In this document: positions 8,201-64,000 of the stretch, piece after piece | How the letters are laid out: every line of letters starts with the position of its first letter | How positions within the stretch are numbered: position 1 is the stretch's first letter | Assembly (NCBI GenBank): GCA_964016885.1 | Contig: OZ024743.1 | Location: 331,700,001-331,764,000, forward strand | DNA from: Eledone cirrhosa | Taxonomy: Eukaryota | Reading direction: 5' to 3' | DNA length: 64,000 bases | Program-made: the position numbers and the translations under genes | The notes under the pieces: generated by a model | What the model saw: only the letters and a program-made list of their open reading frames with translations | Told to the model about the DNA's origin: nothing | Databases searched by the model: none

Positions 8201-8819
8201 ATGTTTCAGCGCAGGCTCTATGAATGGAATGTGTATGCATGTGTGTGTGTACATATATATTTTATGACTGTATGTGTCTGTGTCAATGTGTGCATGTATG
8301 TGTAAATATTTATCCATCTGTGTGTGTGTGTACATATATCTATCTATAGATCCATGTGTGTGTTCATAAACGCTGGACCCCTATCCAAACTCCAAACGTC
8401 CCCAGGTAAGGTGTATGTGTGTGTGTGATTGGCATTAGAAAGGGCATCCAGCTGTAGAAACCAAGCCAAAATCACTTCTGTATGAGCAAGACATGGTCAT
8501 CTGACCTCGATTTGTCTCAAATAGGACAACCCATCTAACCCATACTAACGTGGAAAATGGACGTTAAACAGTGATGATGATCATACAACTGACTGAACAC
8601 ATGTGTGAATTTTCACCAAAAATATAAGATCAACAATATGTATGAATACAACATGGTCACCGAACCATCCTAGCCTTAGAACCTGAAAATCTGTGTAACC
8701 CATGTAGGCATGGAAAATAGACATTAAATTGTGATATATATGTAATAATACAGTTAGTTAATCACTGATTCTATTGTATGCAGGATATAATAATAGTGTA
8801 TATATATATATATATATAT

Positions 8820-9164
8820 GAAGGCACATGGCTTAGTGGTTAGAGCATTGGCCTTGCAATCGAAAGGTTGTGAGTTCAATTCTCAGACCGGGTGATGTGT
8901 TGTTTCCTTGAGCAAGACACTTTATTTCACATTGCTCCAGTTTACTCAGCTGTAGAAATGAGATGATCGGGAATGAGGTCCCTATCATTCCACTGCAAAG
9001 TGGTCGTGGAGGTGCCACGGCAAAAAATCACCCAGCACTCACTGTAAATGAGGTTGGTGTTAGGAAGGGCATCCAGCTGTAGAAATCAAGCCAGAATCAG
9101 TTCCCGTCCCACCCTTGCAAGCAGGGAAAAGCGGACGTAAAATGAAATGATGAAATGATGATGA
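8820..9164 (+). mobile_element. Family A tRNA-derived SINE with CORE-like centre and RTE-derived 3' tail
   Basis: A box TGGCTTAGTGG, B box GAGTTCAATTC, CCTTGAGCAAGACACTTTA centre, tail GGTTGGTGTTAGGAAGGGCATCCAGCTGTAGAAA...GGACGTAAAA(TGA)n; sits inside (TA)n. Confidence 0.9.
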
Positions 9165-9259
9165 TATATATATAGACACACATAAACACACATATATATA
9201 TATATAGTAATATATAAGCAAACAAAGAATCAGTTTTGCATCTTATACATGTTTAATTG

Positions 9260-9349
9260 CATATTACATATGTTTCACTGTCAATCAGCTCAAGGAACGA
9301 TCTATTAATGACCGAATCTGACTCAGGAATCGAAAGCTCCTCAGAAATG
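9260..9349 (-). ncRNA. Type I hammerhead ribozyme motif (copy 1)
   Basis: Minus RNA CAUUU-CUGAGGA-GCU...AGU-GAAAC-AUAU-GUA-AUAUG; full catalytic core, palindromic stem III, one U-U mismatch in stem I. Confidence 0.65.
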
Positions 9350-9837
9350 TGTTAACATGTAGACTCGTGTCTGAGAGTGTCAGACGTGAGTCTACATGTA
9401 ATAATGTAAATAGTGTCTATAATTAGGTACTTGGACATCTTTTTCTTGGTTGCCTTCAGGAGTATAGAGAAACATCAGAGATTTTGAAGAATCTTAAAGA
9501 TTTAAAATAAAACTCAAACTTAAATTTGTTTCACATACTAGACAAACACATTTATATTTAAAAGTTTTAAGCAATTACATCAACCTCACTTCAATAATCA
9601 ATTTATCAGTCTATTTATGGAATGGCTAAATTCACCTATTGAGTTACAAACCTTTAGATGCCTCAGCAAAATTACATTTTTTTTTGCTTAACTTATGAGA
9701 TGACCTGTAAAATTTGACTTTAGATCACCAAGAAAAATTATATGAGGTGAGCTTACAACTGGGGGTCATCATAGAAAGCTATATGAAGTGACATATGAAC
9801 AGAAGTTGACTGGGTCTTAAAACCAACTTAAGTACCT

Positions 9838-10840
9838 GACTGCTGAGGATCACATGTGGGTTGTTACTGCTCAGCTCAGGTGACACTGACTAACAGACTG
9901 CTGAGGATCACATGTGAGTTGTCACTGCTCAGCTAAGGTGACACTGACTAACAGACTGCTGAGGATCACATGTGGGTTGTCACTGCTCAGCTAAAGTGAC
10001 ACTGACTAACAGACTGCTGAGGCTCACATGTGAGTTGTCACTGCTCAGCTAAGGTGACACTGACTAACAAACTGCTGAGGATCAGAGGTGGGTTGTCACT
10101 GATCAGCTAAGGTGACACTGACTAATGGATTGCCGAGTCTCAGAAGTGGGTTGTCACTGATCAGCTAAGGTGACACTGACTAATGGATTATGAGGGTCAG
10201 AAGTGGGTTGTCACTGATCAGCTAAGGTGACACTGACTAATGGATTGCTGAGGATCAGCGGTGGGTTGTCACTGATCAGCTAAGGTGACACTGACTAATG
10301 GATTGCTGAGGATCAGCGGTGGGTTGTCACTGATCAGCTAAGGTGACACTGACTAATGGATTGCTGAGGATCAGAGGTGGGTTGTCACTGATCAGTTAAG
10401 GTGATCAGCGGTGGGTTGTCACTGATCAGCTAAGGTGACACTGACTAATGGCATGCTTAGGATCAGAGGTGGGTTGTCACTGATCAGCTAAGATGACACT
10501 GAATAATGGATTATGAGGGTCAGAGGTGGGTTGTCACTGATCAGTTAAGGTGACACTGACTAATGGATTGCTGAGGATCAGAGGTGGGTTGTCACTGATC
10601 AGCTAAGGTGACACTGACTAATGGATTGCTGAGGCTCAGAAGTGGGTTGTCACTGATCAGCTAAGGTGACACTGACTAATGGATTGCTGAGGATCAGAGG
10701 TGGGTTGTCACTGATCAGCTAAGGTGACACTGACTAATGCATTGCTGAGGATCAGCGGTGGGTTGTCACTGATCAGCTAAGGTGACACTGACTAATGGAT
10801 TGCTGAGGGTCAGAGGTGTGATTTCACTGCTTAACTAAGG
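9838..10840 (+). repeat. 58-bp minisatellite, ~17 copies
   Basis: Unit CTGACTAATGGATTGCTGAGGATCAGAGGTGGGTTGTCACTGATCAGCTAAGGTGACA. Confidence 0.95.
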
Positions 10841-11104
10841 TATGTTCCATTTTCATTTCAATCTTTGTGCAACAGCTATATCTTCAGTTTTTTGTAACAA
10901 TTTTACATTTTCTTAAACCCAGTCCAGTGGTCCTTTGGCCATTTTTCAATACACCTATAGCTAGTTCCCTTCTGCCTCTAAAATGAGGTCATGATACAAT
11001 GTTATGTTATGACCCTTGAACCTGAATGTTATATGAAGTAAACTTTGACCTTTAGTTATAAAATGTTATCAAGATATAGCTTAATAGAAACTTTAATTAT
11101 TGTA

Positions 11105-11295
11105 ATAATTGTTTCTACTTTAGGCACAAGGCCAGCAATTACCCAGTACATTACTGGTACTTTATTTTATCGACCCTGTAAGGATGAAAGGCAAAGTTAA
11201 CCTCGGCGGGATTTGAACTCAGACTGTAAAGGGACGTAACTATGCTAGAAAGCATGGCGTCCGACCCTCTACCGATACTGCCAATCCTCTGCCTT
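11105..11295 (-). mobile_element. SINE family B, full length
   Basis: Near identical to 5085-5275. Confidence 0.9.
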
Positions 11296-11873
11296 TAATT
11301 GTTGTAATAATGCTGAACTAAAAGTAATGATAAGATTTTCACAATATATTCTCAAGTCTGGTCTAGTACATGACTACCTGTCTAGTGCTGATGCCATGAT
11401 AAAAAGTACCCAGTACACCCTATAAAGTGGAAGTATTGGTGTCACAAAACATACAACATTACAGTCTTAAAGGTGGTTGGCATTAGGAAAGGTTTCCAGA
11501 CATGGAAACCATCCTAAATATGGAACATAAACAAAATGAGGTCACTCTGACCTGACTAATCACAGATCATGGCAACCCATCCAACCCACACCAGTGTGAA
11601 AAGAAGGCAAAGAATGATGATGACAACGATGATAATAGCTGGTGTATATTTGTAGTTGTGAAAGATGTTAGAGTTACTAGTGCTGGTGCGTGTGGTGTGA
11701 TCGGAGAATGTCTTATAAACTGAAATGGCACAGTCACAAGAAGAGAATGATTTCTTAGACAAAATAAAGTTGAAAGAAATCAATACAAGAAGAGAGACAT
11801 AACTAGAGCCATCTAAATATCTATCTCTCATATATATATATATATATATACACATATATATATATATAAATAT

Positions 11874-11910
<37 letters not shown>

Positions 11911-11912
11911 CG

Positions 11913-11944
<32 letters not shown>

Positions 11945-11953
11945 GACACACAC

Positions 11954-11986
<33 letters not shown>

Positions 11987-11995
11987 GACACACAC

Positions 11996-12026
<31 letters not shown>

Positions 12027-12027
12027 G

Positions 12028-12076
<49 letters not shown>

Positions 12077-12077
<1 letters not shown>

Positions 12078-12417
12078 GAGGCATATGGCTTAGTGGTAAG
12101 AGCATTGGCCTTGCAATCGAAAGATTGTGAGTTCAATTCTCAGACCGGGTGATCTGTTGCTTCCTTGAGCAAGACACTTTATTTCACATTGCTTCAGTTT
12201 ACACAGCTGTAGAAATGAGATGATAGGGCCTGGGGTCCCTATCATTCCACTGCAAAGTGGTCGTGGAGGTGCCACGGCAAAAAAGCACCCAGCACTCACT
12301 GTAAATGAGGTTGGTGTTAGGAAGGGCATCCAGCTGTAGAAATCAAGCCAGAATCAGTTCCCGTCCCACCCTTGCAAGCAGGGAAAAGCGGACGTAAAAT
12401 GATGATAAAATGATGAT

Positions 12418-12460
<43 letters not shown>

Positions 12461-12897
12461 TATGGAAGCACATGGCTTAGTGGTTAGAGCATTGGGCTTG
12501 CAATCGAAAGGTTGTGAGTTCAATTCTCAGACCGGGTGGTGTGTTGTTTCCTTGAGCAAGACACTTTATTTCACATTGCTCCAGTTTACTCAGCTGTAGA
12601 AATGAGATGATAGGGACTGGGGTCCTTATCATTCCACTGCAAAGTGGTCGTGGAGGTGCCACGGCAAAAAAGCACGCAGCACTCACTGTAAATGAGGTTG
12701 GTGTTAGGAAGGGCATCCATCTGTAGAAATCAAGCCAGAATCACTTCCCGTCCCACCCTTGCAAGCAGGGAAAAGTGGACGTAAAATGATGATGATGATA
12801 TATATATATATATATATACACACACATATATATATATATTGATGATGGCGATGACTTTGATACAAAGATACCTAAAGGGCTAGATGACATATGCGTC

Positions 12898-12991
<94 letters not shown>

Positions 12992-13296
12992 GAGGCACAT
13001 GGCTTAGTGGTTAGAGCATTGGCCTTGCAATCGAATGGTTGTGAGTTCAATTCTCAGACCGGGTGATGTGTTATTTCCTTGAGCAAGATACTTTATTTCA
13101 CATTGCTCCAGTTTACTCAATTGTAGAAATGAGATGATAGGGACTGGGGTCCCTATCATTCCACGGCAAAAAAGCACCCAGCACAAATGAGGTTGGTGTT
13201 AGGAAGGGCATCCAGCTGTAGAAATCAAGCCAGAATCAGTTCCCGTCCCACCCTTGCAAGCAGGGAAAACCGGATGTAAAATGAAATGATGAAATG

Positions 13297-13298
<2 letters not shown>
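12077..13298 (+). mobile_element. Three head-to-tail SINE A copies (12077-12417, 12463-12799, 12991-13298) separated by (TA)/(CA) microsatellites
   Basis: Each matches 8820-9164; the third has internal deletions. Confidence 0.92.
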
Positions 13299-13327
<29 letters not shown>

Positions 13328-13846
13328 TTTGTACCTATTGTGATTGACAATGCACTACCTACTAACCAAACAGTGCTACCAGATTTACACCAGAGAGAGT
13401 GTGTGAGTGAGTGTGTGTGTGTGTGTGTCTAATAATTTATACTACATAAATATTATCAGAAATGAAATTACAGCTATGACATAGAACAGAAAGACAAGAT
13501 TCAGGAGAAAGAGACACAAAGAGAAGAGACAGACAAGAAAATAACAGTTATAGAATATAATTGAGTAAAGAATGAGGAAATAACACAAAACATGAACTAC
13601 AAAACAAAGACAAAATGGAGTAGAAGTTTAAGACTAGAAAAATAGATGGTAGAAAACAGATGGTCATTGAGGAGGTCACAAAATGTGTGACAAAAACTAT
13701 CAATCAAGTGAAATTTATATGGTGTGTATGTTTCTTTCTATTGGCAATATTGGCAACATGACCATCCCTAAATATATGTGTAATAATACAGTTAGTTAAT
13801 CACCAACACTATTATATGCAGGATATAATAATAGTATACATATATA

Positions 13847-13932
<86 letters not shown>

Positions 13933-13985
13933 GTAATATATAAGGGAACAAAGAATCAATGTTGCATCATATACATATTTTATTT

Positions 13986-14074
13986 CATATTACATATGTT
14001 TCACTGTCGATCAGCTCGATGAACGATCTATTAATGATTAAAACTGAGTCTGGAATCGAAGCTCCTCAGATATG
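13986..14074 (-). ncRNA. Type I hammerhead ribozyme motif (copy 2)
   Basis: Minus RNA CAUAU-CUGAGGA-GCUUCGAU...AUCGACAGU-GAAAC-AUAU-GUA-AUAUG; 5-bp stem I, intact core, predicted cleavage between 13991 and 13990. Confidence 0.72.
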
Positions 14075-15538
14075 TGTTAACATGTAGACTCGTGTCTGAG
14101 AGTCTCAAACACGAGTCTACATGTTAACACATATCTGATACTCTACTCCCCAAAAGCATCAAGTGCTCATTCGGCAAACCACCTACGGATGCAATTAATT
14201 TGCATCTTTAATATGTGTGTGTGTGTGTGTGTGTGTGTAAAAGTTTAAGGCCAGGAAAAGGAGGAGGCACAAAACAGATAGTCATTGAGGTCAGAGAATG
14301 TGTGACAAAAGTACTGTCAAACAAATGAATAACGAACAATAAAAATGAAGTTAAAAATAAAGTGAAAATTATATGGTGTGTGTGTTTCTTTCTATTGGCA
14401 ATATTGACAACATAGCCATCCCCAAATATAACAATGAGGAAATAAATGTCCATATATTACCCCAGACAGTTAAACAGTGAGAAACAGGAACATTTTACAA
14501 GTAATTCTATGTCTACAACCAGCTCACTCACTCATATTTTTTATTACTGTTTTGTAATTTATTAGAGAAAGAACAACCAAAAACTTTTCCTTTAAACCTT
14601 TTGATATCAACCAAGCTGGAACAGTCTCTGGTTCTACAATACAAAAGGGTTTATATTTATCATAAACTATCCATCATATTCTTTGTTAAGCTATGTTGCA
14701 AACACCAGCTCAATAATGAAAAAGTTATATTACTAAATCCCTCCAAATTTGTTATTATTTTCAAGATAATTTAAAAGCCATAGGCAAGCTCTTTCATTAG
14801 AAATAGTATCTTTGATGAAAAAGTATCTTTATTAATAGTTCATTACCACTATCTATCTATATATCTATCTATATTAAATTCAATACTACAATGAAGACAT
14901 AACACAGAGAAACGCAAGAGTGCTTTACACCATGGATATCTTTACCAAACCATTACTATGTAATCACCCCACCAACGTCCTAACACCCGACCCCTAGATC
15001 TTCTTCCCCAATCCCCAAGTCCCCAATGCTGGGACACGTTGTCATAGTTTGAGACAAGACAGATCAGAGTGACCACATCTTGTTCATGTGTCCTATATTT
15101 GGCATGGGTTCTACACCTGGATGCCCTTCTTAATGCTAACCGCTCTATATATGCAGCCAGAGTGCTGACTTATTTTCAGTTTCATGTAGTACAGGACATT
15201 AAAGGTTGCTGCCCAGTCTTCTAATTTAGTTAGAAATAAATAGCTAAAATAGAATAGAGATTTATATCCTATTCTATCACCCATCTAACATAATTTGAGC
15301 TACATGGTCTGATGGTTAGGATGTTGTACTGACAATCATAATGACCAGATTTTGATTCACAAACCAAGTGACACATTGTGTTTTTGAGCATGACACTTCA
15401 ATTCACTTTCCTCCTGTTCACTCAAAAGAAAATGATGATGAACAGAAAATGATTACCAACAGCAGCTAGAGTCTAGTCCTGTAAAACGATATCTGGGGTC
15501 TTAAGGGGATGGGTGGGATGTATTCTCAGTTATTTTAA

Positions 15539-17250: not shown

Positions 17251-17374
17251 TATTTATTAAAATAATAGATTAAAGTTTAAGCAAAGAATCGCTGCTTTCA
17301 CCCTTCAGAAGATCCCGTTATGGGTGAAAGCAGCAATTCTTTGCTTTAACTTTAATCTGTTATTTTAATAAATA
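17251..17374. repeat. Inverted repeat with 53-bp arms and an 18-nt loop
   Basis: 17251-17303 is the near-perfect reverse complement of 17322-17374. Confidence 0.9.
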
Positions 17375-17382
17375 TAATTATA

Positions 17383-17717
17383 TCATCATCATCGTTTTAC
17401 GTCCGCTTTTCCCTGCTTGCAAGGTTGGGACGGGAACTGATTCTGGCTTGATTTCTACAGCTGGATGCCCTTCCTAACACCATAACACCAACCTCATTTA
17501 CAGTAAATGCTGGGTGCTTTTTTTCCGTGGCACCTACACGACCATTTTGGAATGATAGGGACCCCAGTCCTATCATCTCATTTCTACAGCTGAGTTAACT
17601 GGAGCAATGTGAAATAAAGTGTCTTGCTCAAAGAAACAACACATCACCCGGTCTGAGAATTGAACTCAACTTTTCGATTGCAAGGCCAATGCTCTAACCA
17701 CTAAGCCATGTGCCTCC
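17383..17717 (-). mobile_element. SINE family A
   Basis: Reverse complement of the 8820-9164 consensus. Confidence 0.9.
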
Positions 17718-17721
17718 ATAT

Positions 17722-19550
17722 ATCATCATCATCATCATCATCATCATCATTTAACGTCCATCTTCCGCGCTTGCATGGGTTTGGACGGGAGTTTTCCCAC
17801 TTGAGGCAAGAGTGGTTGTCTTGCTCGTATAGGACTGTCTGGCGGGTTTTCTACGGCTGGATGCCCTTCCTAACACCAACCACGTTTACAGTGTGGACTG
17901 GGAGGTTTTTACCGCGTTACCTACACGGCCACATTACAGCGTGGACTGTGTGTATTTTTGGCGTGACACCTACACGACCTCATTTGTTTCGGACTGGATG
18001 TTGTGGTACCAACATAACTTTACATTGAAAGGGGTGGTGTGGATGGGATGGAGGTAGTGGGACGGGGGTGTATTTTTGTTAGAGGTGCCTACTGACTGTA
18101 GTAGGTTTCACTTTGTACTTAGGTAAGGCGAGTCTTCTGTATTACTGTGTAACGCCAAAGATCTCGGTCCAGTGACATTGTCTTGGAGAGGTGTAAGTGT
18201 GTGAGGTCGGAATTTATCAGGTCGTCCCAGGTTTTTCTGGGTCTTCCTACTCCATGGCTACCTTCTATTTTTATTGCCCTGCACTTTTTTATACAGCTGT
18301 CGTCTTTCATGCGCATCACATGACCGTACCAACGTAGTCTTCTCTCAAGTAAACAACATCTGATCCCTCTTATTCCTAATTTCTCCCTTAGTTCGTTTGT
18401 GCTTTGCCGTTCACGTATATTACTATTACACCTCCAGCGGAGCATGCATGCTTCGTTCCTCTCCAGTTTGCGTATATCCTCTGCACACAATGCCCAGGTC
18501 TCACTGCCATGTAACATTGCTGTTAGTATGCAGGCATCATACAGCCTGCCTTTTATTTTTAGGGAAAACCCTTTAGCGGCTAATAGTGGTATAAGCTCTC
18601 TGAACTTTTTCCATCCAGTTCTGACTCTAGCTACTGTACTTTCAGAGCACCCTCCTCCACTGCTGATTTTGTCACCCAGGTAACAGAAGGTGTCCACTAT
18701 TTCTGTAGTACCATCTGTGCAATGGAATGAGCTAGTATTCTGTGGGCACTTGCTGCTACTTATTGCACCAGAGCACTGGCCACATATAAAATCTATATTC
18801 TTAGTTAGCTTACCTGTGATCCCACTACATCTTTTATATACCCATACTTTGCATTTGGGACATAAAATGGAGTTTCTGCCTACTCCTTTCCTACACACTG
18901 AGCATGGCCATTTCCCGGATGGGATCGGTGCCCTATTTTCTTTCCTACAAACTAGAACTTTAGTCTGAGACAGGTTAATTTTAAGGCCTTTTGATTCTAG
19001 GCCATGCTTCCATGTTTGGAATTTCTTCTCTAGTTCGGCCATTGATTCAGCTATGAGCGTTAGATCATCTGCGTATAGGAGTTCCAATGGGCAGCTGGTC
19101 TTGAACTCTTCTGTTTTAGCCTGAAGGGCAATAATAAATAGTAGGGGGCTAAGAACGGAGCCCTGATGAACACCAACTTTTATGGTAAACTCTATATTCG
19201 TTGTTAATTCTAACCTTGCTGACTGTTTCTTTATACATGGCTTGTATAGCTCTCACAAGCCATTCATCAACACCTAGTTTTCTAAGAGCCCACCAGATAA
19301 TGGAATGGGGGACTCTGTCAAAGGCTTTCTCCAAGTCGACAAAAGCTAAGTATAGGGGTTTACTTTTAGCTAGCTACTTCTCCTGTAGTTGTCGTACAAT
19401 GAAAAGAGCGTCTGTGGTGCTTTTACCTGACACAAACCCGAACTGCATTTCATCTAGATCAATTCGCTCTCTGATTAGTTGCGCTATTACTTTTTCTGTG
19501 ACCTTCATGACCTGGTCAATTAATTTAATGCCTCTATAGTTACCTCTATC
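17722..19550 (-). mobile_element. 5'-truncated, frameshifted RTE-clade LINE (RT, PHD-like Cys insert, C-terminus, 3' UTR, (GAT)n tail)
   Basis: ORF fragments GNYRGIKL...QFGF, DLEKAFDRVP, ELLYADDL, WPCSVCRKGVGRNSILCPKCKVW, ERRLRWYGHVMRM...GRPRKTW. Confidence 0.95.
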
Positions 19551-19769
19551 TATATATATATATATATTATATATATATAAATACATATACACACACACAC
19601 ATATATATATATACATATATATACACACAAACATATATATATATATACACACGTAGAAACAGAGAAAGACACATATTTCAAGGGAAATAGTAAACTATGA
19701 GATAATTGACTATTGATGCATGTGTTGATTTGTTAAAGATATGTTCCTGATGTACAATTTGTGTAGTAC

Positions 19770-23482: not shown

Positions 23483-25015
23483 ATCATCATCATCATCATC
23501 ATCATCAACGTTTAACGTCCGTGTTCCACGCTTGCATGGGTTTGGACGGGGGTAGTCCCACTTGAAGCAAGAGTGATTGTCTTGCTCGCATAGGACTGTC
23601 TGGCAGGTTTTCTACAGTTGGATGCCCTTCCTAACACCAACCACATTTACAGTGTGGGTCTGGGACGTTTTTACCGTGTTGCCTACACGGCCACATTACA
23701 GCGTGGACTGTGTGTTTTTTTTTCGTGACACCTACACGATCTCATTTGTTTCGGCCTGGATGGCGCGGCACCAACATAACTTTACATAGAACGGGGTGGT
23801 GTGGATGGAGTGGGGGTGGTGGTGGTGGGACGGGGTGTATTTGGTTAGAGATGCCTACTGGCTGGAGTAGGTTTTACTATATATTTAGGTAAGGCGGGTC
23901 TTCTCTGTTACTGAGTACCGCCAAAGGTCTCGGTCCAGTGACATTGTCTTGGAGAGGTGTAAGTGTGTGATGTCGGAGTTTATCAGCTCGTCCCAGGTTT
24001 TTCTAGGTCTGCCTATTCCGTGACTACCGTCTATCTTTATTGCCCTGCACTTTGTTATACAGCTATCGACTTTCATGCGCATCACGTGTCCATACCAACG
24101 TAGCCTTCTCTCGAGTAAACAACATCTGATCCCTCTTATCTCTAATTTTTTCCTTAGTTCGTTTATGCTTTGCCGTTCACGTATATTACTGTTACACATC
24201 CAGCGGAGCATGCAAGCTTCGTTCCTCTCTAGTCTGCGTATATCCTCTGCACACAATGCCCAGGTCTCACTGCCATGCAGCATTGCTGTTCGTATGCAGG
24301 CATCGTACAACCTGCCTTTCATTTTTAGGGAGAACCCTTTAGCAGCTAATAGTGGTATAAGCTCTCTGAACTTTTTCCAACCAGTTCTGACTCTAGCTAC
24401 AGTACTTTCAGAGCACCCTCCCCCACTGCTGATTTTATCGCCCAGGTAACGGAAGCTGTCCACTATTTCTATAGAACCCTCTGCGCAATTGAAAGAGCTA
24501 GTATTTTGTGGGCACTTGCTGCTACTTATTGCACCAGAACACCGGCCACATGTAAAATCTATGTTCTTAGTTAGCTTACCTGTGATCCCACTACATCTTT
24601 TATGCACCCATACTTTGCATTTAGGACATAAAATGGAGTTTCTACCTACGCCTTTCCTACACACCGAGCACGACCATTTCCCAGAAGGGATCGCCGCCTT
24701 GTTTTCTTTCCTACAAACTAGAACTTTGGTCTTAGCCAGGTTAATTTTAAGTCCTTTTGACTCTAGGCCGTGCTTCCATGTTTGGAATTTCTTCTCTAGC
24801 TCGGCCATTGATTCCGCTATGAGTGTCAGGTCGTCTGCGTATAGGAGTTCCCATGGGCAGCCTGTCTTGAACTCCTCTGTTATAGCCTGAAGGGCAATAA
24901 TAAATAGTAGGGGGCTGAGAACAGAGCCCTGATGGACGCCAACTTTTACGCTAAACTCTTCACTATATTCGTTGTTAATTCTAACCTTGCTGACTGTTTT
25001 TTATACATGGCTTGT
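23483..25015 (-). mobile_element. 5'-truncated RTE LINE, same family as 17722-19550
   Basis: ORF 23885-24808 plus upstream GVHQGSVLSP and YADD; 3' UTR and (GAT)n tail. Confidence 0.95.
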
Positions 25016-25308
25016 TATGTTGGTGCCACAACATCCAGGCCGAAACAAATGAGATCGTGTAGGTGTCACGACAAAAAAACACACAGTCCACGCTGTAATG
25101 TGGCCGTGTAGGCAACACGGTAAAAACCTCCCAGACCCACACTGTAAATGTGGTTGGTGTTAGGAAGGGCATCCAACTGTAGAAAACCTGCCAGACAGTC
25201 CTATGCGAGCAAGACAATCACTCTTGCCTCAAGTGGGACTACCCCCGTCCAAACCCATGCAAGCATGGAACACGGACGTTAAACGTTGATGATGATGATG
25301 ATGATGAT
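25014..25308 (+). mobile_element. RTE 3' UTR fragment joined head-to-head to the preceding copy
   Basis: Near-identical reverse complement of 23483-23780. Confidence 0.9.
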
Positions 25309-28828: not shown

Positions 28829-29089
28829 ACACAGGGTCAGACTTTCACCTGCTAAGGCTCTATGTTATGTGAAATTTGAGGACCTTCTCTAAAAATATAT
28901 AATTATTATTAATATTAATGATAAAGTATAATATATATATAAAATTTTTGAATGGCTTAGTGTTAAAAAATAAAAACTAATGATAAAATAAACATTCACC
29001 CCTCCTTTGGCCATGATCCTCCCCCCCCCCCATGCGCCTCCCACATCATAATACTCCACCCATGTCCTAACCCCCACTTAAGTTCCCAG

Positions 29090-29465
29090 CCCACACTATT
29101 AAGTGGTCGTGTAGATGACACAACAAAAAGCATATAGCCAACACTGTAAAATGGTCATGTAGGTGTCATGACCAAAAGCAACTAGTCCACACTGTAAAGT
29201 GGTCCTATTGGTGTCACAACAAAATCACCCAGTCCACATTGTAAAGTGGTTGTGTAGGTGTCATGATAAAATCTCCCAGCAAACACTAAATGTGGTTGGT
29301 GTTAGGAAGGGCAACCAATCATAGAAACCAAGCCCAAATTAGTTCTATATGAGCAAGACACAGTCACCTGAACTGGCTTGTCTCAAAACGAGACACCTCG
29401 TCTAACTCACGCTAGCGTGGAAAGATGGACATTAAACGGTGATGATGCTGATAATGATGATGACA
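29090..29465 (+). mobile_element. RTE-type 3' UTR with four to five tandem ~47-bp modules and (GAT)n tail
   Basis: Repeated CAGTCCACACTGTAAAGTGGTCGTGTAGGTGTCA..., then GGTTGGTGTTAGGAAGGGCA. Confidence 0.8.
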
Positions 29466-36149: not shown

Positions 36150-39127
36150 TGGGGTGTCAGGGAGGAGCATGTATCTCTGTAGGGAGGGCTAGCCATGCCC
36201 TTTTCAGGACAGCTCATCCTGCATTGGGTCCCACCTGACACTCAGCTCTCGCCTGAGGCGCCAAGAAGCTGTAGCATGCGACAGTGGCCACATCTCGGTA
36301 AACCGCCTTGGCTGGCGGGCCAAACCAGGTTGAGGGTAGCAGGACAAGTCTGAAACTCCCCCGGTGAGTTAGATAGGGGTGCCTGCCCCTGCATGCGAAG
36401 ACTGGACCCGGCAGAGTGAGTGGAGGAGGACAACATCGTCCCAACGGTCACGAAGGCGGCGACAGCAAGTGGTGTGGAGCGCTAGGGCACGGCAAGGCAC
36501 TACAGACGTTGTGGCCATCCACTGCAGCCAATGAAGTCCCTGGTCGTGACGGTCCTCCGTACCACCGAATTCTGGCTTCTACGGCCGAGTGAGTGGGACT
36601 GTCACTGTGCACTGGCCCTCCCACTATAAACCTTTCCTGCACAGGTTTCTTCTTTAGCGTGCACTCCCAAGCCCTGTGGCGATGGGCGAGAGGTGGAGGT
36701 AACCTCTGGGAGTTGCCAGTCTCAAGCCCACACGTTGGCGGCCTGGATGCGCAAGTCGTTCTCCTCCTGACTCTGGGATGACAGAGGAGATCAGGCGTTC
36801 CACTGGCGACTGGGCAGCCCTTTTCAGAGGACCACTGCTCACCCTCGCATGAGGGGAGGGACCATAAAAGGAGCCCTAATCAAATGCTCGTCCCACACAA
36901 AGCCGGCCAGTCTACTGAGGCTGGCGGTTTTACCCTTCCAAGCGGTCAAAACCAACATAATAGAAAGAAGAACTTGATTCTTGGCGCATGGAATGTGCAC
37001 ACCCTCATGGATAGGGAAACCCCCTTGAGGCCAGAGAGAAGAACTGCCCTCATAGCGAGGGAATTAGAATGCAGGACAAGTGGTGGGAAAAGAAGGCCGA
37101 AGAAGTCGAGAGATTTGCTGACACAAAGAACTCAAAGATCTTCTTCAGCGCCATTGGGGACGTCTACAGACCCCCCAAGCCTGTCACCACACCACTGCTG
37201 TCTGCTGACGGCTCGATCCTGCTGAAGGAGAAGAGCAGCATCAACTCGAGGTGGAAGAGCACTTCAGCAACCTGCTCAACAGGCCCTCCACTGTCGACCC
37301 TGCCACCCTCGACCAGGTCCCACAGAAGCCCGTAGTCGGCAGCTTCGACCTCCCTCCCACGTTGGATGAAGTCACGAAGGCAATCAACCAGACCAGCTCA
37401 GGAAAGGACAGGATTCCTGCCGAGATCTTCAAGTCGGCCGGTCCAGCTGCCCTGGGGGGTGGCCTTCCACACCCTCCTCGTCAGCATATGGGAGGAAGAA
37501 GAGGTGCCCAAAGACTTCAGGGATGCCCCAGTTGTCTCGCTTTTTAAGAACAAAGGCAGCAAAACTGACTGTGGCAACTATCGGAGCATTTCTCTCTGTC
37601 CATCGCTGGGAAGGTCCTAGCTCGGGTCATGCTTAACCACCTCATCGCCAACATCTCGGAGGACAACCTGCCTGAGGCCCAGTGTGGGTTCCGCCCAAAC
37701 CACAGCACGATCGACATGATCTCTGTACGCCAGGTGCAGGAGAAGTGTGTCGAGCAGAACATGGACCTCTTTGCCGTCTTCATAGACTTGATGAAGGCCT
37801 TCGACACTGTCAACAGGGAGGCCCTCTGGTTGATCCTGTCAAAGTTTGGATACCCAACAAAGTTTGTGAACCTGATACGGCAATTCCATGACGACATGAC
37901 CGAGCAGGTGCATTCGGGCGGAGAGGCATCGGAGCCGTTCGGAATCACCAACGGCGTCAAGCAAGGATGCGTGCTGGCTCTTGTCCTCTTCAACCTGTTC
38001 TTCGCCTGCGTGCTCAATCATGCCATCAGGGACCTCGAGCACGGAGTGTATTTGTGATACAGGCTGGATGGCTCCCTGTTTGACTTGCGGCGCCTGACAT
38101 CCTAAACAAGGACCGTGCAGAGGATCGCAATGGAGGCACTTTTTGCTGATGACTGTGCCCTCATGGCCCACAGAGAGTCTGACCTCCAAGTCATTGTCAA
38201 TAAGTTCGTGGAGGCCTCCTGCCTCTTCAGTCTCATAATTAGCCTTGGCAAGACTGAGGTCCTGTTCCAGCCTGCACCTGCCTCCGTCACCCACCCTCCT
38301 TCCATCGGAGGCACCCAGCTAAAGACAGTGGATGACTTCAAGTCCCTCGGCAGTGTCATCAGCAGCGATGGAAGCCTCGACAAGGAGATAAATGCCAGGA
38401 TCTGCAAGGCCAGTCAAGCCCTTTGCCGCCTGAAGACAAGCGTACTGAACCAGCACAACATCAGGCAGTCCGCCAAGCTGAAGGTGTACAGGGCCATTGT
38501 TCTCACCAGCCTCCTCTACGGATGTGAGACATGGACCCTGTACAGAAGGCACCTGAAGCAGCTGGAACGGTTCCACATGCGCAGTCTGTGGTCAATCATG
38601 AACATCAAATGGCAGGAGAGGTCTCCAACCTCGAAGTTCTTGACATGGCTGAGACAACCAGTGTCAAAGCTATGATACTGAAGAGCCAACTTCAATGGTT
38701 GGGACATGTCATCCGGATGGACGATCATAGGCTTCCGAAGCAACTGATGTATGAGGAACTCTGTTCGGGAAATGAAAGCGGAGAAGGCCACTCAAGAGGT
38801 TCAAAGACTGCGTTAAGTCCAGTATCAACAACACTGGAATCACCCCAAAAGAACTTGAGTCCCATGCTCAGGACAGGACTGAGTGGCGAGCCCTTACCAG
38901 ACACGCCAAGGACTCTTTTGAAGAAAAGAGACGGTCAGAGGTCACTGGGGCCCGTGAAAGGCATCAACAACTGCCCCAAGCAACTCTGGTCTTTTCCCCT
39001 GCCCCCACTGTCCCGGGACCTGCAAGTCAAGGTTCGGCCTCCACAGCCACCTGCGTGCCCACGACAGACGGGAACTAAAATAAAGAAGATGTCATCATCG
39101 TTCCCTATGGACAACCAAGAAAGACAA
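36150..39127 (+). mobile_element. GC-rich RTE (BovB-like) LINE with 5' UTR; most of the endonuclease deleted; several frameshifts
   Basis: LILGAWNVHTLMD...RRTALIARELE fused to MQDKWWEKKAEE; CGNYRSISL, PEAQCGFRP, FIDLMKAFDTVNR, GVKQGCVLA, LFADD, SLLYGCETW; C2H2 FPCPHCPGTCKSRFGLHSHLRAH. Confidence 0.95.
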
Positions 39128-42100
39128 ATCAACTATACCGATCTATCACTCTATACTATCTGCCAATCTCTTCTACTAAACTACTAAGCTATACTAAACT
39201 AACACTATATCAACTACTAATCTTTACTAAGCTATACTAAACTAACACTATACTAACTACTAATCTATACTAAGCTATACTAAACTAACATTATACTAAC
39301 TACTAATCTACACTAAGCTATACTAGATTAACACTATACTAACTACTAATCTATACTAGACTAACACTATACTAACTACTAATCTATATTAAACTAACAC
39401 TATACTAACAACTAATCTATACTAAGCTATACTAAACTAACACTATACTACCTACTAAGCTATACTAAACTAACACTATACTAACTACTAATCTATACTA
39501 ACTACCAATCTATACTAAACTATACTAAACTAACACTATACTAACTACTAATCTATACTAAGCTATACTAAACTAACACTATACTAACTACCAATCTATA
39601 CTAAACTATACTAAACTAACACTATACTAACTACTAATCTATACTAAGCTATACTAAACTAACACTATACTAACTACTAATCTATACTAAGCTATACTAA
39701 ACTAACACTATACTAACTACTAATCTATACTAAGCTATACTAACTACTAACACTATACTAACTACCAATCTATACTAAGCTATACTAACTACTAACACTA
39801 TACTAACTACCAATCTATACTAAGCTATACTAAACTAACACTATACTAACTACCAATCTATACTAAGCTATACTAACTACTAACACTATACTAACTACCA
39901 ATCTATACTAAGCTATACTAACTACTAACACTATACGAACTACCAATCTATACTAAGCTATACTAAACTAACACTATACTAACTACTAATCTATACTAAG
40001 CTAAACTAAACTAACACTATACTAACTACTAGCTATACTAAACTAACACTATACTAACTACTAATCTATACTAAGCTATACTAAACTAACACTATACTAA
40101 CTACTAATCTATATTAAGCTATAGTAAACTAACACTATACTAACTACTAATCTATACTAAGCTATACTAAAGTAACACTATACTAACTACTAATCTATAC
40201 TAAGCTATACTAAACTAACACTATACTAACTACTAATATTTACTAAGCTATACTAAACTAACACTATACTAACTACTAATCTATACTAAGCTATACTAAA
40301 CTAACACTATACTAACTACTAATCTATACTAAGCTATACTAAACTAACACTATACTAACTACTAATCTATACTAAGCTATACTAACTACTAACACTATAC
40401 TAACTACCAATCTATACTAAGCTATACTAACTACTAACACTATACTAACTACCAATCTATACTAAGCTATACTAAACTAACACTATACTAACTACTAATC
40501 TATACTAAGCTAAACTAAACTAACACTATACTAACTACCAATCTATACTAAGCTATACTAACTTCTAACACTATACTAACTACCAATCTATACTAAGCTA
40601 TACTAACTACTAACACTATACTAACTACCAATCTATACTAAGCTATACTAAACTAACACTATACTAACTACTAATCTATACTAAGCTAAACTAAACTAAT
40701 ACTATACTAACTACCAATCTATACTAAGCTATACTAACTACTAACACTATACTAACTACCAATCTATACTAAGCTATACTAAACTAACACTATACTAACT
40801 ACTAATCTATACTAAGCTATACTAAACTAACACTATACTAACTACTAAGCTATACTAACTACTAACACTATACTAACTACCAATCTATACTAAGCTATAC
40901 TAACTACTAACACTATACTAACTACTAATCTATATTAAGCTATAATAAACTAACACTATACTAACTACTAATCTATACTAAGCTATACTAAACTAACACT
41001 ATACTAACTACTAATCTATACTAAGCTATACTAAACTAACACTATACTAACTACTAATATTTACTAAGCTATACTAAACTAACACTATACTACCTACTAA
41101 TCTATACTAAGCTATACTAAACTAACACTATACTAACTACTAATCTATACTAAACTAACACTCTACTAACTACTAATCTATACTAAGCTATACTAAACTA
41201 ACGCTCTACTAACTACTAATCTATACTAAGCTATACTAAACTAACACTATACTAACTACTAATCTATACTAAACTAACACTCTACTAACTACTAATCTAT
41301 ACTAAGCTATACTAAACTAACGCTCTACTAACTACTAATCTATACTAAGCTATACTAAACTAACACTATACTAACTACCAATCTATACTAAACTAACACT
41401 ATACTAACTAACTACCAATCTATACTAAGCTATACTAAACTAACACTCTACTAACTACTAATCTATACTAAGCTATACTAAACTAACGCTCTACTAACTA
41501 CTAATCTATACTAAGCTATACTAAACTAACACTATACTAACTACCAATCTATACTAAACTAACACTATACTAACTAACTACCAATCTATACTAAGCTATA
41601 CTAAACTAACACTATACTAACTACTAAACTACTAAGCTATACTAAACTAACACTATACTAACTACTAATCTTTACTAAGCTATACTAAACTAACACTATA
41701 CTAACTACTAATCTATACTAAGCTATACTAAACTAACACTATACTAACTACTAATCTTTACTAAGCTATACTAAACTAACACTATACTAACTACTAATCT
41801 TTACTAAGCTATACTAAACTAACACTATACTAACTACTAATCTTTACTAAGCTATACTAAACTAACACTATACTAACTACTAATCTTTACTAAGCTATAC
41901 TAAACTAACACTATACTAACTACTAATCTATACTAAGCTATACTAAACTAACACTATACTAACTACTAATCTATACTAAGCTATACTAAACTAACACTAT
42001 ACTAACTACTAATCTATACTAAGCTATACTAACTACTAACACTATACTAACTACTAATCTATACTAAGCTATACTAAACTAACACTATACTAACTACTAA

Positions 42101-42250
42101 TCTATACTAAGCTATACTAAACTAACACTATACTAACTACTAATCTATACTAAGCTATACTAAACTAACACTATACTAACTACTAATCTATACTAAGCTA
42201 TACTAAACTAACACTATACTAACTACCAATCTATACTAAGCTATACTAAC
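39128..42250 (+). repeat. ~3.1-kb satellite with 43/45-bp units built from ~10-bp CTATACTAA(N) subunits
   Basis: Unit CTATACTAAGCTATACTAAACTAACACTATACTAACTACTAAT. Confidence 0.97.
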
Positions 42251-42910: not shown

Positions 42911-43051
42911 ATAGATGCTGTGTGTGTGAGTGTGTTAGACCTCCTTTGGTTCCATTGATAAGTGAGCCGGATGATGACGATGATGATATCACACAAGACA
43001 GAAAGAGACAAAAGGATGAAAAACTATTATTACAGCACTGATTATATATAT

Positions 43052-43401
43052 GGAGGCACATGGCTTAGTGGTTAGAGCATTGGCCTTGCAATCGAAAGGT
43101 TGTGAGTTCAATTCTCAGACCGGGTGATGTGTTGTTTCCTTGAGCAAGACACTTTATTTTACACATTGCGCCAGTTTACTCAGCTGTAGAAATGAGATGA
43201 TAGGGACTGGGGTCCCTATCATTCCACTGCAAAGTGGTTGTGGAGGTGCCACGGCAAAAAAGCACCCAGCACTCACTGTAAAATGAGGTTAGTGTTAGGA
43301 AGGGCATCCAGCTGTAGAAATCAAGCGAGAATCAGTTCCCGTCCCACCCTTGCAAGCAGGGAAAAGCGGACGAAAAATGATGATGATGATCATCATCATC
43401 A

Positions 43402-43408
<7 letters not shown>
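43052..43408 (+). mobile_element. SINE family A
   Basis: Consensus match. Confidence 0.92.
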
Positions 43409-43435
<27 letters not shown>

Positions 43436-43548
43436 CATCATCATCATCATCATCATCATATCATCCTATATATATATATATATAAATATATATATAGGAA
43501 AATAGTCAGGACCCCGACGGCTGAGCACTGGCCGATGATGATGATGAT

Positions 43549-43862
43549 CATCATCATTTTACGTCCGCTTTTCCCTGCTTGCAAGGGTGGGTCGGGAACT
43601 GATTCTGGCTTGATTTCTACAGCTGGATGCCCTTCCTAACACCAACCTCATTTACAGTGAGTCCTGGATGCTTTTTTGCCGTGGCACCTACACAACCACT
43701 TTGCAGTGGAATGATAGGGATCCTTTCTACAGCTGAGTTAACTAGACCAATGTGAAATAAAGTGTCTTGCTCAAGGAAACAACACATCACCTGGTCTGAG
43801 AATTGAACTCACAACCTTTCAATTGCAAGGCCAATGCTCTAACCACTAAGCCATGTGCCTCC
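43549..43862 (-). mobile_element. SINE family A, inverted relative to 43052-43408
   Basis: Consensus match with a small internal deletion. Confidence 0.92.
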
Positions 43863-43965
43863 ATGATATATATATATCTTTATATATATACACACACATA
43901 CATATATATAAACATACATACAAACATATATATAAATATACGTATATATCTATATACACACACAA

Positions 43966-55500: not shown

Positions 55501-55687
55501 GTAAGATGATCTACAACAGTAAGGAGGCAATGCCAGTGTTCAGAGATAAACAAATGGTTGTAAAGATTATTTCAGTCCTTACAAATCTAATTTACATTCC
55601 ATTAAAAGATCATTGACTGCTTATCAACACAGTTGTGATTTTTATCAGAAGATTGTAACGAACAAGAGATTAATGAACTTCCATCAT

Positions 55688-56465
55688 TTCAGATGGTGAG
55701 TTTGATCAATGGAACAGCTTGCACATCAAACTGTTACTGTTGGACATTTGTCAGTTCAGATGGTGAGTTTGATCAACGGAACAGCTTGCACATCAAACTG
55801 TTACTGTTGGACATTTGTCAGTTCAGATGGTGAGTTTGATCAACGGAACAGCTTGCACATCAAACTGTTGCTGTTGGACATTTGTCAGTTCAGATGGTGA
55901 GTTTGATCAACAGAACAGCTTGCACATCAAACTGTTACTGTTGGACTTTTGTCAGTTCAGATGGTGAGTTTGATCAATGGGGCAGCCTACACATCAAACT
56001 GTTACTGTTGGACTTTTGTCAGTTCAGATGGTGAGTTTGATCAATGGAACAGCTTGCACATCAAACTGTTACTGTTGGACTTTTGTCAGTTCAGATGGTG
56101 AGTTTGATCAATGGAACAGCTTGCACATCAAACTGTTACTGTTGGACTTTTGTCAGTTCAGATGGTGAGTTTGATCAATGGAACAGCTTGCACATCAAAC
56201 TGTTACTGTTGGACTTTTGTCAGTTCAGATGGTGAGTTTGATCAATGGAACAGCTTGCACATCAAACTGTTACTGTTGGACTTTTGTCAGTTCAGATGGT
56301 GAGTTTGATAAATGGAACAGCTGCACATCAAACTGTTACTGTTGGACTTTTGTCAGTTCAGATGGTGAGTTTGATCAATGGAACAGCCTGCACATCAAAC
56401 TGTTACTGTTGGACTTTTGTCAGTTCAGATGGTGAGTTTGATCAATGGAACAGCCTGCTCATGAT
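55688..56465 (+). repeat. 67-bp minisatellite, ~11.5 copies
   Basis: Unit TTCAGATGGTGAGTTTGATCAATGGAACAGCTTGCACATCAAACTGTTACTGTTGGACTTTTGTCAG. Confidence 0.96.
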
Positions 56466-61097: not shown

Positions 61098-62185
61098 CGT
61101 GCGTGCATGCGTGTCTGCTTATGTCCAGTAACTTGGTTTGACAAAAAGAGATCAATAAAAACACTTCACTTCAAGAGTTTGAAAGTTGAGGCAATAGAGA
61201 GGAATTCCAGCTAGATCCTGTAAATCTTTGTATGGTTTAACTACACACTAAGTCTCTGATATCCAAATGGATATAGACATGCACCCAGGAGTTATGACCT
61301 GGATGTGGCTCAGCCCCCTTAGAGTGTAAGAAATTATGGACCAAAATACTCGCTTGAGTGGGGGGTTTCTTCTCTGAAGACCTTCTGCTGCCCTACTCTC
61401 CTGAGAGTTTCTTACCACCTATGAACTATTACAAATTATTTTGAATGCTGTCTAAAATTGCTCGGAATATGTTCTCACTCCTACATAGCTTCCATTTATC
61501 TACTTATATATACTTTAGTTGTGGCCAAGGTGGATGGAATGCTTTTTTTTTTCGTTGTTTTTTTTTTTTATCTTTCTGTTGTTATAGAGACGTAACAAAG
61601 TAATTAGAGAATTAAATCACTTAATTTGCATATAAACCAGCTTATTTTATTTTCTTAAAAATCATCAATGCAAATTAGAAAGATTTAAATAATTACATAA
61701 TGGTAATTAGAGTTGTTAAAAATTACTTAAGGATTTTTTTTTCCATTAATCTATATATAGAGAAAGGTAATGAAATGGCAGAGTTGTTAGAACATAGTAT
61801 AGAATGCTTTATGGTATCCATTCTGGCTCTCTGATTTCAAATCCCGCTGATTTCAACTTTAATATTCATCCTTTTGAGGTCGATAAAAAGCAAAATACCA
61901 GTCTAGTGCTGGTGTTAATTCTTCCTCTATATCTTTCCTCACTTCCACTCTCTCACCTATCCATCTCAGGAAGACATAATCTGTGTTCAGACCTGGAGAG
62001 CAATGGGCTCAGCCAGCGTTTAAAAAAAAACATAAGAAACGCTGTATGGCACTGTGGCTCCCATATGTATGCATATATAGAGACAGAAGGCTTGTTCTTT
62101 CTCTCAAATATATAGATCCTTTCTTTCTTATTTATTTCATTTTATAGCATCTTTCATTAAATATGTAAGGTAACATGACCAATAA

Positions 62186-64000
62186 GCACCCAACCCATCC
62201 TGTAAAGTGGTAGTGTTGGTGGCATGACAGAAGGTACCTAGTCCATCCTGTAAAGTGGTAGTGTTGGTGGCATGACAGAAGGTACCTAGTCCACCCTGTA
62301 AAGTGGTAGTGTTGGTGGCATGACAGAAGGTACCTAGTCCACCCTGTAAAGTGGTAGTGTTGGTGGCATGACAGAAGGTACCTAGTCCACCCTGTAAAGT
62401 GGTAGTGTTGGTGGCATGACAGAAGGTACCCAGTCCATCCTGTAAAGTGGTAGTGTTGGTGGCATGACAGAAGGTACCCAGTCCATCCTGTAAAGTGGTA
62501 GTGTTGGTGGCATGACAGAAGGTACCCAGTCCATCCTGTAAAGTGGTAGTGTTGGTGGCATGACAGAAGGTACCTAGTCCATCCTGTAAAGTGGTAGTGT
62601 TGGTGGCATGACAGAAGGTACCCAGTCCATCCTGTAAAGTGGTAGTGTTGGTGGCATGACAGAAGGTACCTAGTCCATCCTGTAAAGTGGTAGTGTTGGT
62701 GGCATGACAGAAGGTACCTAGTCCACCCTGTAAAGTGGTAGTGTTGGTGGCATGACAGAAGGTACCCAGTCCATCCTGTAAAGTGGTAGTGTTGGTGGCA
62801 TGACAGAAGGTACCTAGTCCATCCTGTAAAGTGGTAGTGTTGGTGGCATGACAGAAGGTACCTAGTCCACCCTGTAAAGTGGTAGTGTTGGTGGCATGAC
62901 AGAAGGTACCCAGTCCATCCTGTAAAGTGGTAGTGTTGGTGGCATGACAGAAGGTACCTAGTCCACCCTGTAAAGTGGTAGTGTTGGTGGCATGACAGAA
63001 GGTACCTAGTCCACCCTGTAAAGTGGTAGTGTTGGTGGCATGACAGAAGGTACCCAGTCCACCCTGTAAAGTGGTAGTGTTGGTGGCATGACAGAAGGTA
63101 CCTAGTCCACCCTGTAAAGTGGTAGTGTTGGTGGCATGACAGAAGGTACCCAGTCCATCCTGTAAAGTGGTAGTGTTGGTGGCATGACAGAAGGTACCTA
63201 GTCCATCCTGTAAAGTGGTAGTGTTGGTGGCATGACAGAAGGTACCTAGTCCACCCTGTAAAGTGGTAGTGTTGGTGGCATGACAGAAGGTACCCAGTCC
63301 ATCCTGTAAAGTGGTAGTGTTGGTGGCATGACAGAAGGTACCTAGTCCATCCTGTAAAGTGGTAGTGTTGGTGGCATGACAGAAGGTACCTAGTCCACCC
63401 TGTAAAGTGGTAGTGTTGGTGGCATGACAGAAGGTACCCAGTCCATCCTGTAAAGTGGTAGTGTTGGTGGCATGACAGAAGGTACCCAGTCCATCCTGTA
63501 AAGTGGTAGTGTTGGTGGCATGACAGAAGGTACCTAGTCCACCCTGTAAAGTGGTAGTGTTGGTGGCATGACAGAAGGTACCCAGTCCACCCTGTAAAGT
63601 GGTAGTGTTGGTGGCATGACAGAAGGTACCCAGTCCATCCTGTAAAGTGGTAGTGTTGGTGGCATGACAGAAGGTACCTAGTCCATCCTGTAAAGTGGTA
63701 GTGTTGGTGGCATGACAGAAGGTACCTAGTCCACCCTGTAAAGTGGTAGTGTTGGTGGCATGACAGAAGGTACCCAGTCCATCCTGTAAAGTGGTAGTGT
63801 TGGTGGCATGACAGAAGGTACCTAGTCCACCCTGTAAAGTGGTAGTGTTGGTGGCATGACAGAAGGTACCCAGTCCATCCTGTAAAGTGGTAGTGTTGGT
63901 GGCATGACAGAAGGTACCTAGTCCACCCTGTAAAGTGGTAGTGTTGGTGGCATGACAGAAGGTACCCAGTCCATCCTGTAAAGTGGTAGTGTTGGTGGCA
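62186..64000 (+). repeat. Highly homogeneous 48-bp satellite, at least 37 copies, continuing past the window
   Basis: Unit GGTACC[T/C]AGTCCA[C/T]CCTGTAAAGTGGTAGTGTTGGTGGCATGACAGAA. Confidence 0.98.

Follow-up and report, generated by a model that had tools for sequence, protein, structure and literature searches.

The window analyzed here is a 64,000-nucleotide stretch of the Eledone cirrhosa genome (contig OZ024743.1, positions 331,700,001 to 331,764,000; all coordinates below count from its first letter). It contains two copies of a repeat that carries, on the minus strand, a type I hammerhead ribozyme motif with a very long stem II. We consider it likely, though well short of certain, that these repeats are inert solo pseudo-long terminal repeats (pLTRs), left behind by a Penelope-like element (PLE) family that bears this long-stem-II hammerhead. 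The motif, the abundance of the family, an inverted arm, an optional tail and an end in TA repeats are direct observations. Because no Penelope open reading frame (ORF) is linked to the copies, we infer Penelope membership from this anatomy. Both window copies are probably decayed and functionless.

The hammerhead motif and its family

The two copies (9201-9399, copy 1, and 13927-14124, copy 2) are 87.9% identical across 199 bp in a pairwise alignment. As the original prediction from the sequence had claimed, both keep the expected elements on the minus strand: CUGAGGA, with C3 at 14069 in copy 2 and at 9344 in copy 1; GAAAC-AUAU-GUA, whose final base is 13991 and 9265, respectively; and stem I, with 5/5 pairs in copy 2 and 4/5 in copy 1, where there is one U-U mismatch. 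The core order CUGANGA ... GAAA ... UH of a type I hammerhead is present in both. Stem III is short and palindromic, as in the minimal hammerheads of metazoan PLEs, and forms a perfect palindrome of 8 nt here. Between CUGAGGA and GAAA lies the stem II insert, 60 nt long in copy 2 and 61 nt in copy 1. The R10.1-Y11.1 pair required at its base is a G.U pair followed by two more pairs, and this is the optimal closing of the isolated insert. The features are as follows.

13932..14100, minus strand: copy 2 pLTR-like unit, about 170 nt, which holds the hammerhead (from alignment and from family depth in four public runs)
13986..14074, minus strand: copy 2 type I hammerhead (descriptor match; cut predicted)
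14074-14070 / 13990-13986 (stem I), 14069-14063 (CUGAGGA), 14002-13999 (GAAA) and 13999-13992 (stem III), minus strand: parts of the copy 2 hammerhead
Between 13991 and 13990, minus strand: predicted cut in copy 2
14003..14062, minus strand: copy 2 stem II insert, 60 nt, with G.U closing, an irregular rod and a 7-nt end loop at 14035-14029 (predicted fold, majority letters)
9206..9374, minus strand: copy 1 pLTR-like unit (from alignment)
9260..9349, minus strand: copy 1 hammerhead, with C3 at 9344, insert at 9337-9277 and predicted cut at 9265/9264

On both strands of the 64-kb window, a hammerhead descriptor that was composed after the motif had been seen matches only copies 1 and 2. At this window level, 200 block-wise dinucleotide shuffles gave a mean of 0.045 loose matches, with any loose match in 9/200 shuffles and a strict match in 0/200. 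Rfam's hammerhead models, which had been proposed as a check, did not confirm the motif: they are absent from the best 150 of 164 matches in the window at E 1 and gave no match at E 10 when run on each copy. The models likely miss both copies because of the long stem II insert. The Rfam matches otherwise are microsatellite or hairpin look-alikes of microRNA models. Hammerhead pattern scans of metagenome contigs and viral contigs gave 0 matches.

Folded in isolation, the insert of each copy (60 and 61 nt) closes with the GCU/AGU and UCGAU/AUCGA helices that had been read from the sequence, and the natural insert of copy 1, when folded freely, likewise shows the apical and basal helices of the rod. 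The insert had also been described as rich in substitutions. The two copies do differ in 10/61 columns of the insert versus 1/29 columns of the core and stems I and III, but this two-copy contrast, compared as 1/29 versus 18/139, is non-significant (p = 0.12).

A broader view of the family comes from four public sequencing runs aligned to 13929-14212, which represent at most three samples and three studies under two organism labels. Three of the runs supply family records as contigs (1,764, 1,900 and 1,574) and one as raw reads (1,574), and most of these are 80-95% alike. These counts establish an abundant family; they are not a copy number. Our analysis of variants covers 40 of 100 variant rows, in which the majority letter differs from copy 2 at 8 sites. 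At 13985, the majority letter supplies a sixth stem I pair (6/6) that is missing in both window copies. Five of the majority-change sites lie in the insert, and each makes a G-C rod pair from a mismatch or wobble of copy 2. Core sites look spared in the family: none of the 40 rows lies in the core, and minority variants occur at 0/30 positions of the core, stem I and stem III and at 21/134 positions elsewhere (p = 0.010, or p = 0.020 without CpG sites), in a test on the same rows from which the 8 sites of majority change, and another 8 located beyond 13934-14097, were removed. Among the minority letters in the rod, one gains a pair, two are in the end loop, two are at an internal mismatch and one makes a wobble. 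Read ends of run X5 at 13982, 13984, 14056 and 14196 were considered as element ends and rejected, as they appear to resemble the enzyme cuts of a restriction-site-associated DNA (RAD) library.

Inverted arm, tail and TA end

The structures around the hammerhead unit suggest a Penelope-type origin.

14104..14138, plus strand: inverted arm of copy 2, a head-to-head copy of 14100-14066 that forms a 35-bp hairpin (z -12.85)
9380..9399, plus strand: inverted arm of copy 1, 20 nt, with its apex as in copy 2 and without a tail
14137..14212, plus strand: tail segment on the inverted arm, its far end approximate (joints, loose ends and junction letters)
13865..13931, no strand: (TA)n run that borders copy 2 on its 3' side
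13772..13847, no strand: 76-bp flank beyond the copy 2 TA run, common to copy 1 (89.5% identical to 8734-8809)
8734..8809, no strand: 76-bp flank beyond the copy 1 TA run, with a tRNA-derived short interspersed element (SINE; about 8820-9165) intervening (alignment)

The tail segment, from 14137 to about 14212, does not occur a second time in the window. All four runs have it attached, on the opposite strand, to the hammerhead unit at the latter's 3' end (13931, 13934 or 13943 to 14136, and loose ends); it is therefore an optional 3' tail. Two more contigs of run X1 have the tail joined inverted to the 5' part, at a different point. The arrangement suggests that copy 2 consists of the unit plus a head-to-head copy bearing the tail, the middle having been lost at a 3-4 nt microhomology. 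At their 3' side, loose ends of the family continue into TA or TAA repeats, so that the AT-rich or microsatellite target typical of PLEs is found here, as are an inverted 5' copy or palindrome accompanying a hammerhead pLTR and an optional tail at one end.

The arm of copy 2 pairs with stem I, on its 5' strand, and with the beginning of the core, and the predicted probability of stem I is 0 beside this arm and near 0 in copy 1. A hairpin lies 3' of the cut site on the minus strand in both copies (13934-13976 and 9208-9250), and two small hairpins lie in the tail on the plus strand (14137-14212). These hairpins are candidate start sites for reverse transcriptase (RT), of the kind that delimit the tail of Poseidon elements. 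Two other interpretations of these structures were rejected. The 35-bp hairpin is not taken as a microRNA, because every score falls far short of the gathering threshold and because the arm duplicates the element in inverted orientation. The idea that the insert is an intron was dismissed by eye, since GT-AG ends are absent.

The window copies are probably not independent of each other. They share the 76-bp flank, which is bounded by TA runs and is present at these two places only in the window, so they probably derive from one locus, by local duplication or 3' transduction. With its shorter arm and no tail, copy 1 would most simply derive from the copy 2 locus, as a partial duplicate or by 3' transduction. 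We considered whether the copies could be the two pLTRs, left and right, of a single 4.9-kb element, and rejected this, as the DNA between them consists of a 58-bp satellite, SINEs and microsatellites with no Pfam match. The notion of two copies bracketing a single element therefore falls away in favor of one insertion that was probably duplicated locally. Direct repeats at 13620-13776 and 14237-14430 (about 155-190 bp, 79-91%) flank the copy 2 unit, and are too long for a usual target duplication.

Among described systems, a close anatomical parallel is the Penelope pLTRs of Adineta vaga (PMC3846280), which likewise have a pLTR of about 200 bp, a 5' palindrome, an inverted pLTR, an optional tail at one end, microhomology deletions and solo pLTRs. 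They differ in that their tail is 31 nt, versus about 75 nt here, and in that here no target duplication is readable within the microsatellites and no ORF is linked. Inverted-pLTR and tail anatomy and (TA)n targets are also reported by Craig et al. 2021 (PMC8557442). Hydra-clade PLEs in that work share with our family a hammerhead near the 3' end, a (TA)n target and a quasi-palindromic stem III. The U that precedes GAA here is found in 18/26 Hydra-clade rows and a G.U closing in 3, whereas in none of the 26 rows does stem II plus its loop exceed about 24 nt, versus the 60-61 nt insert here. The present family differs in sequence from the listed Octopus motif, Hydra-1_oBim, as well as from Naiad_Obim and Naiad_Ovul at their 3' ends (PMC8557442).

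The hammerheads described in 2014 for pLTRs of endonuclease-positive PLEs (PMC4209133) resemble the present ones in their type I core, small palindromic helix III, predicted dimers and occurrence as mostly isolated copies, many per genome. Isolated pLTR copies are in fact a common published state (PMC4209133; PMC3846280). The helix II region is 60-61 nt here, in contrast to 7-8 bp in those hammerheads, and helix I here is 6 bp. The original prediction had called the long stem II atypical. It is indeed unusual among animal PLEs, but there is a precedent: the stem II region of Selaginella PLE-X1_sMoe is similarly long, at 53 nt (PMC8557442). PLE-X1 differs in being a plant element that is endonuclease-less and rDNA-targeted, with a 9-bp stem and a 35-nt loop marked as deviating (PMC8557442). 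Our literature search found no report of the present family, nor of a Penelope hammerhead from an animal whose stem II is of this kind, although subscription papers, supplements, Repbase and Dfam may hold one.

Given a Penelope-like origin, the history of the repeats might be as follows. The 3' end of the element would have been copied by an RT/GIY-YIG protein, in a target-primed reaction at a TA-rich site, and a self-primed inverted copy, deletion, local duplication and decay would have followed. Cleavage after GUA in the parent element would require that the motif act as a dimer or be helped by a protein, because the 2-bp stem III is unstable alone (+2.4 kcal/mol as a hairpin) and stable as an 8-bp self-duplex (-7.0 kcal/mol for the 8-nt palindrome). 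The long stem II would form a rod that leaves the geometry of the core unchanged. Action as dimers is established for hammerheads with a small stem III (PMC4209133). In the one Penelope-like system that has been purified, cutting by the hammerhead required the protein, and cleavage was dispensable for insertion (PMC11167929). By analogy with that system, activity here may be low or protein-assisted.

It is important to set out the observations that count against our preferred explanation. The original prediction stated that no Penelope RT or GIY-YIG ORF is visible in the window, and among 138 of its 183 complex ORFs there is indeed none; the only RT matches among these are of the long interspersed element (LINE) type. 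The tail, at about 75 nt, exceeds the 30-40 nt that has been described. The 2014 metazoan consensus has G10.1-C11.1 and an unpaired base after A9 (PMC4209133), and the present motif has a G.U pair and no such base; lacking two features of this consensus, it is therefore not filed under it. In terms of folding, neither copy is better than shuffled sequences (z 0.19 to 1.09), and adopting the hammerhead fold would cost the two copies 5.1 and 8.5 kcal/mol relative to the free fold. Free folds contain a competing hairpin, in which the 3' strand of stem I pairs with stem III letters, and stem I is therefore weaker as evidence. Compensatory changes on both sides of a pair number 0/33 pairs, in a comparison of two sequences only, with run variants unphased. 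Watson-Crick pairs in the 22-pair rod increase from 13 in copy 2 and 15 in copy 1 to 18 in the family majority; because the register of the rod was partly picked after the majority letters, however, 18/22 is a consistency check and no test. Minority letters at 14017 and 14024 disrupt rod pairs, and the conservation test draws on the reduced set of rows and sites given above.

Alternative explanations

The alternative that fares best, although we regard it as unlikely, is that the repeat is not the truncated end of a long element but a discrete, short, non-autonomous one. It would consist of a unit of about 170 nt and the tail, would have a fixed 5' end of its own, and would depend on a Penelope-like protein for copying in trans. 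Non-autonomous PLEs are known, e.g., MRC1 (PMC8557442). Among the eight contigs listed for run X3, four end at 14101-14105, which weakly supports a fixed 5' end, and one reaches 14129 in the arm; in run X5, one locus stops at 14106, within a (TC)n repeat. However, an ordinary pLTR also has a fixed 5' edge with a palindrome (PMC3846280), and 29 contigs of run X3 extend past 14097, by a median of 255 nt with an agreement of 0.56, which may be shared upstream sequence. Moreover, the window copies are non-independent, so the hairpin apex that they share does not speak for a fixed 5' end. The earlier suggestion of a non-autonomous family is not demonstrated, given that isolated pLTR pieces of autonomous elements are common in the published record (PMC4209133, PMC3846280).

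It is also conceivable, but very improbable, that there is no ribozyme, and that a chance look-alike in an AT-rich repeat has spread with that repeat. Such an account would fit the absence of an Rfam hammerhead match even at E 10, the lack of a folding signal over shuffles, the ability of the stem I 3' strand to pair equally well with the adjoining letters of stem III, and the extent of the scan as a whole, which comprised some 250,000 windows. Chance alone would not lead one to expect that the family majority improves stems I and II, that core sites look spared, or that the motif occupies the position where Penelope-like pLTRs bear hammerheads.

Slightly less plausible still is a non-LTR retrozyme, i.e., tandem monomers of 150-450 nt that are cut by the hammerhead and circularized. 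Metazoan non-LTR retrozymes have a type I hammerhead in a short non-coding repeat, as here (PMC7229834). The unit size is within their range, the small palindromic stem III is as in amphibian retrozymes (PMC7229834), and the family-majority stem I is a canonical 6 bp with a possible extension past an internal loop. Yet retrozymes as described in PMC7229834 differ from the present repeats, which have a tail and inverted arms. The window copies are separated by 4.7 kb that include satellites and SINEs, and the window contains no tandem monomers; among 15 of 46 joints, provisionally, none is head-to-tail. The original prediction had offered a Penelope pLTR or a retrozyme-like element; the Penelope-type origin, the hammerhead, the long stem II and the repeat family are supported, while the retrozyme half is not.

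Finally, stem II could be a local 4-bp hairpin before GAAA, with 47-48 nt flanked by a 5-nt direct repeat inserted between A9 and G10.1; this hairpin is of canonical size, is kept in both copies and would fit the unpaired base that published motifs have at that position (PMC4209133), but it costs 3.9 and 3.4 kcal/mol relative to the rod in the two copies and the majority letters suit the rod, so we give it hardly any credence.

Implications and the surrounding DNA

Hammerheads in the ends of PLEs have been known since 2014 (PMC4209133). A many-copy family with a 60-nt stem II offers a natural test of the role of stem II in Penelope-like ends. Because current models miss such motifs, counts of animal hammerheads may be too low, also where Penelope-like families are reported as "without" hammerheads.

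Two more speculative ideas deserve mention. First, the competing hairpin could hold monomers off: in a possible built-in off switch, the stem I 3' strand of a monomer would pair with stem III letters and so loop out the cut site, a block that dimerization would lift. Second, there is a modest chance, with the odds clearly against it, that the family is an abundant short non-autonomous parasite of PLEs whose 60-nt rod is under selection, as a docking site for a helper RT or as a folding switch, and that it represents a hidden class of long-stem-II animal hammerheads overlooked by Rfam models and short-spacer descriptors.

The window as a whole is animal repeat DNA, made up of tRNA-derived SINEs, LINE RT fragments and satellites. 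Between the two copies is a 58-bp tandem satellite (9838-10841, about 17 units), which contains CTGAGGA and has no match to the hammerhead descriptor. One tRNA-derived SINE is present as four copies in the same orientation within TA microsatellites (8820-9165, 12080-12420, 12465-12800 and 12990-13300), with further copies at about 17374-17723 and 43043-43884. LINE RT frames lie at 3-2480, 18122-19694 and 23888-25217 on the minus strand and at 37015-39184 on the plus strand. The first of these is open, encodes 826 aa and contains RVT_1 and zf-RVT domains, and two others have a PHD-like finger within the RT region. For a LINE protein of the window, the best matches with a name come from Hydractinia and Branchiostoma, at 44-53%. 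Additional satellites, with units of 48, 43 and about 67 bp, occupy 62044-64000, 39058-42240 and 55639-56430, respectively. The 48-bp unit is similar to a portion of a SINE-like repeat that occurs at 11383-11444 and at 29082-29266.

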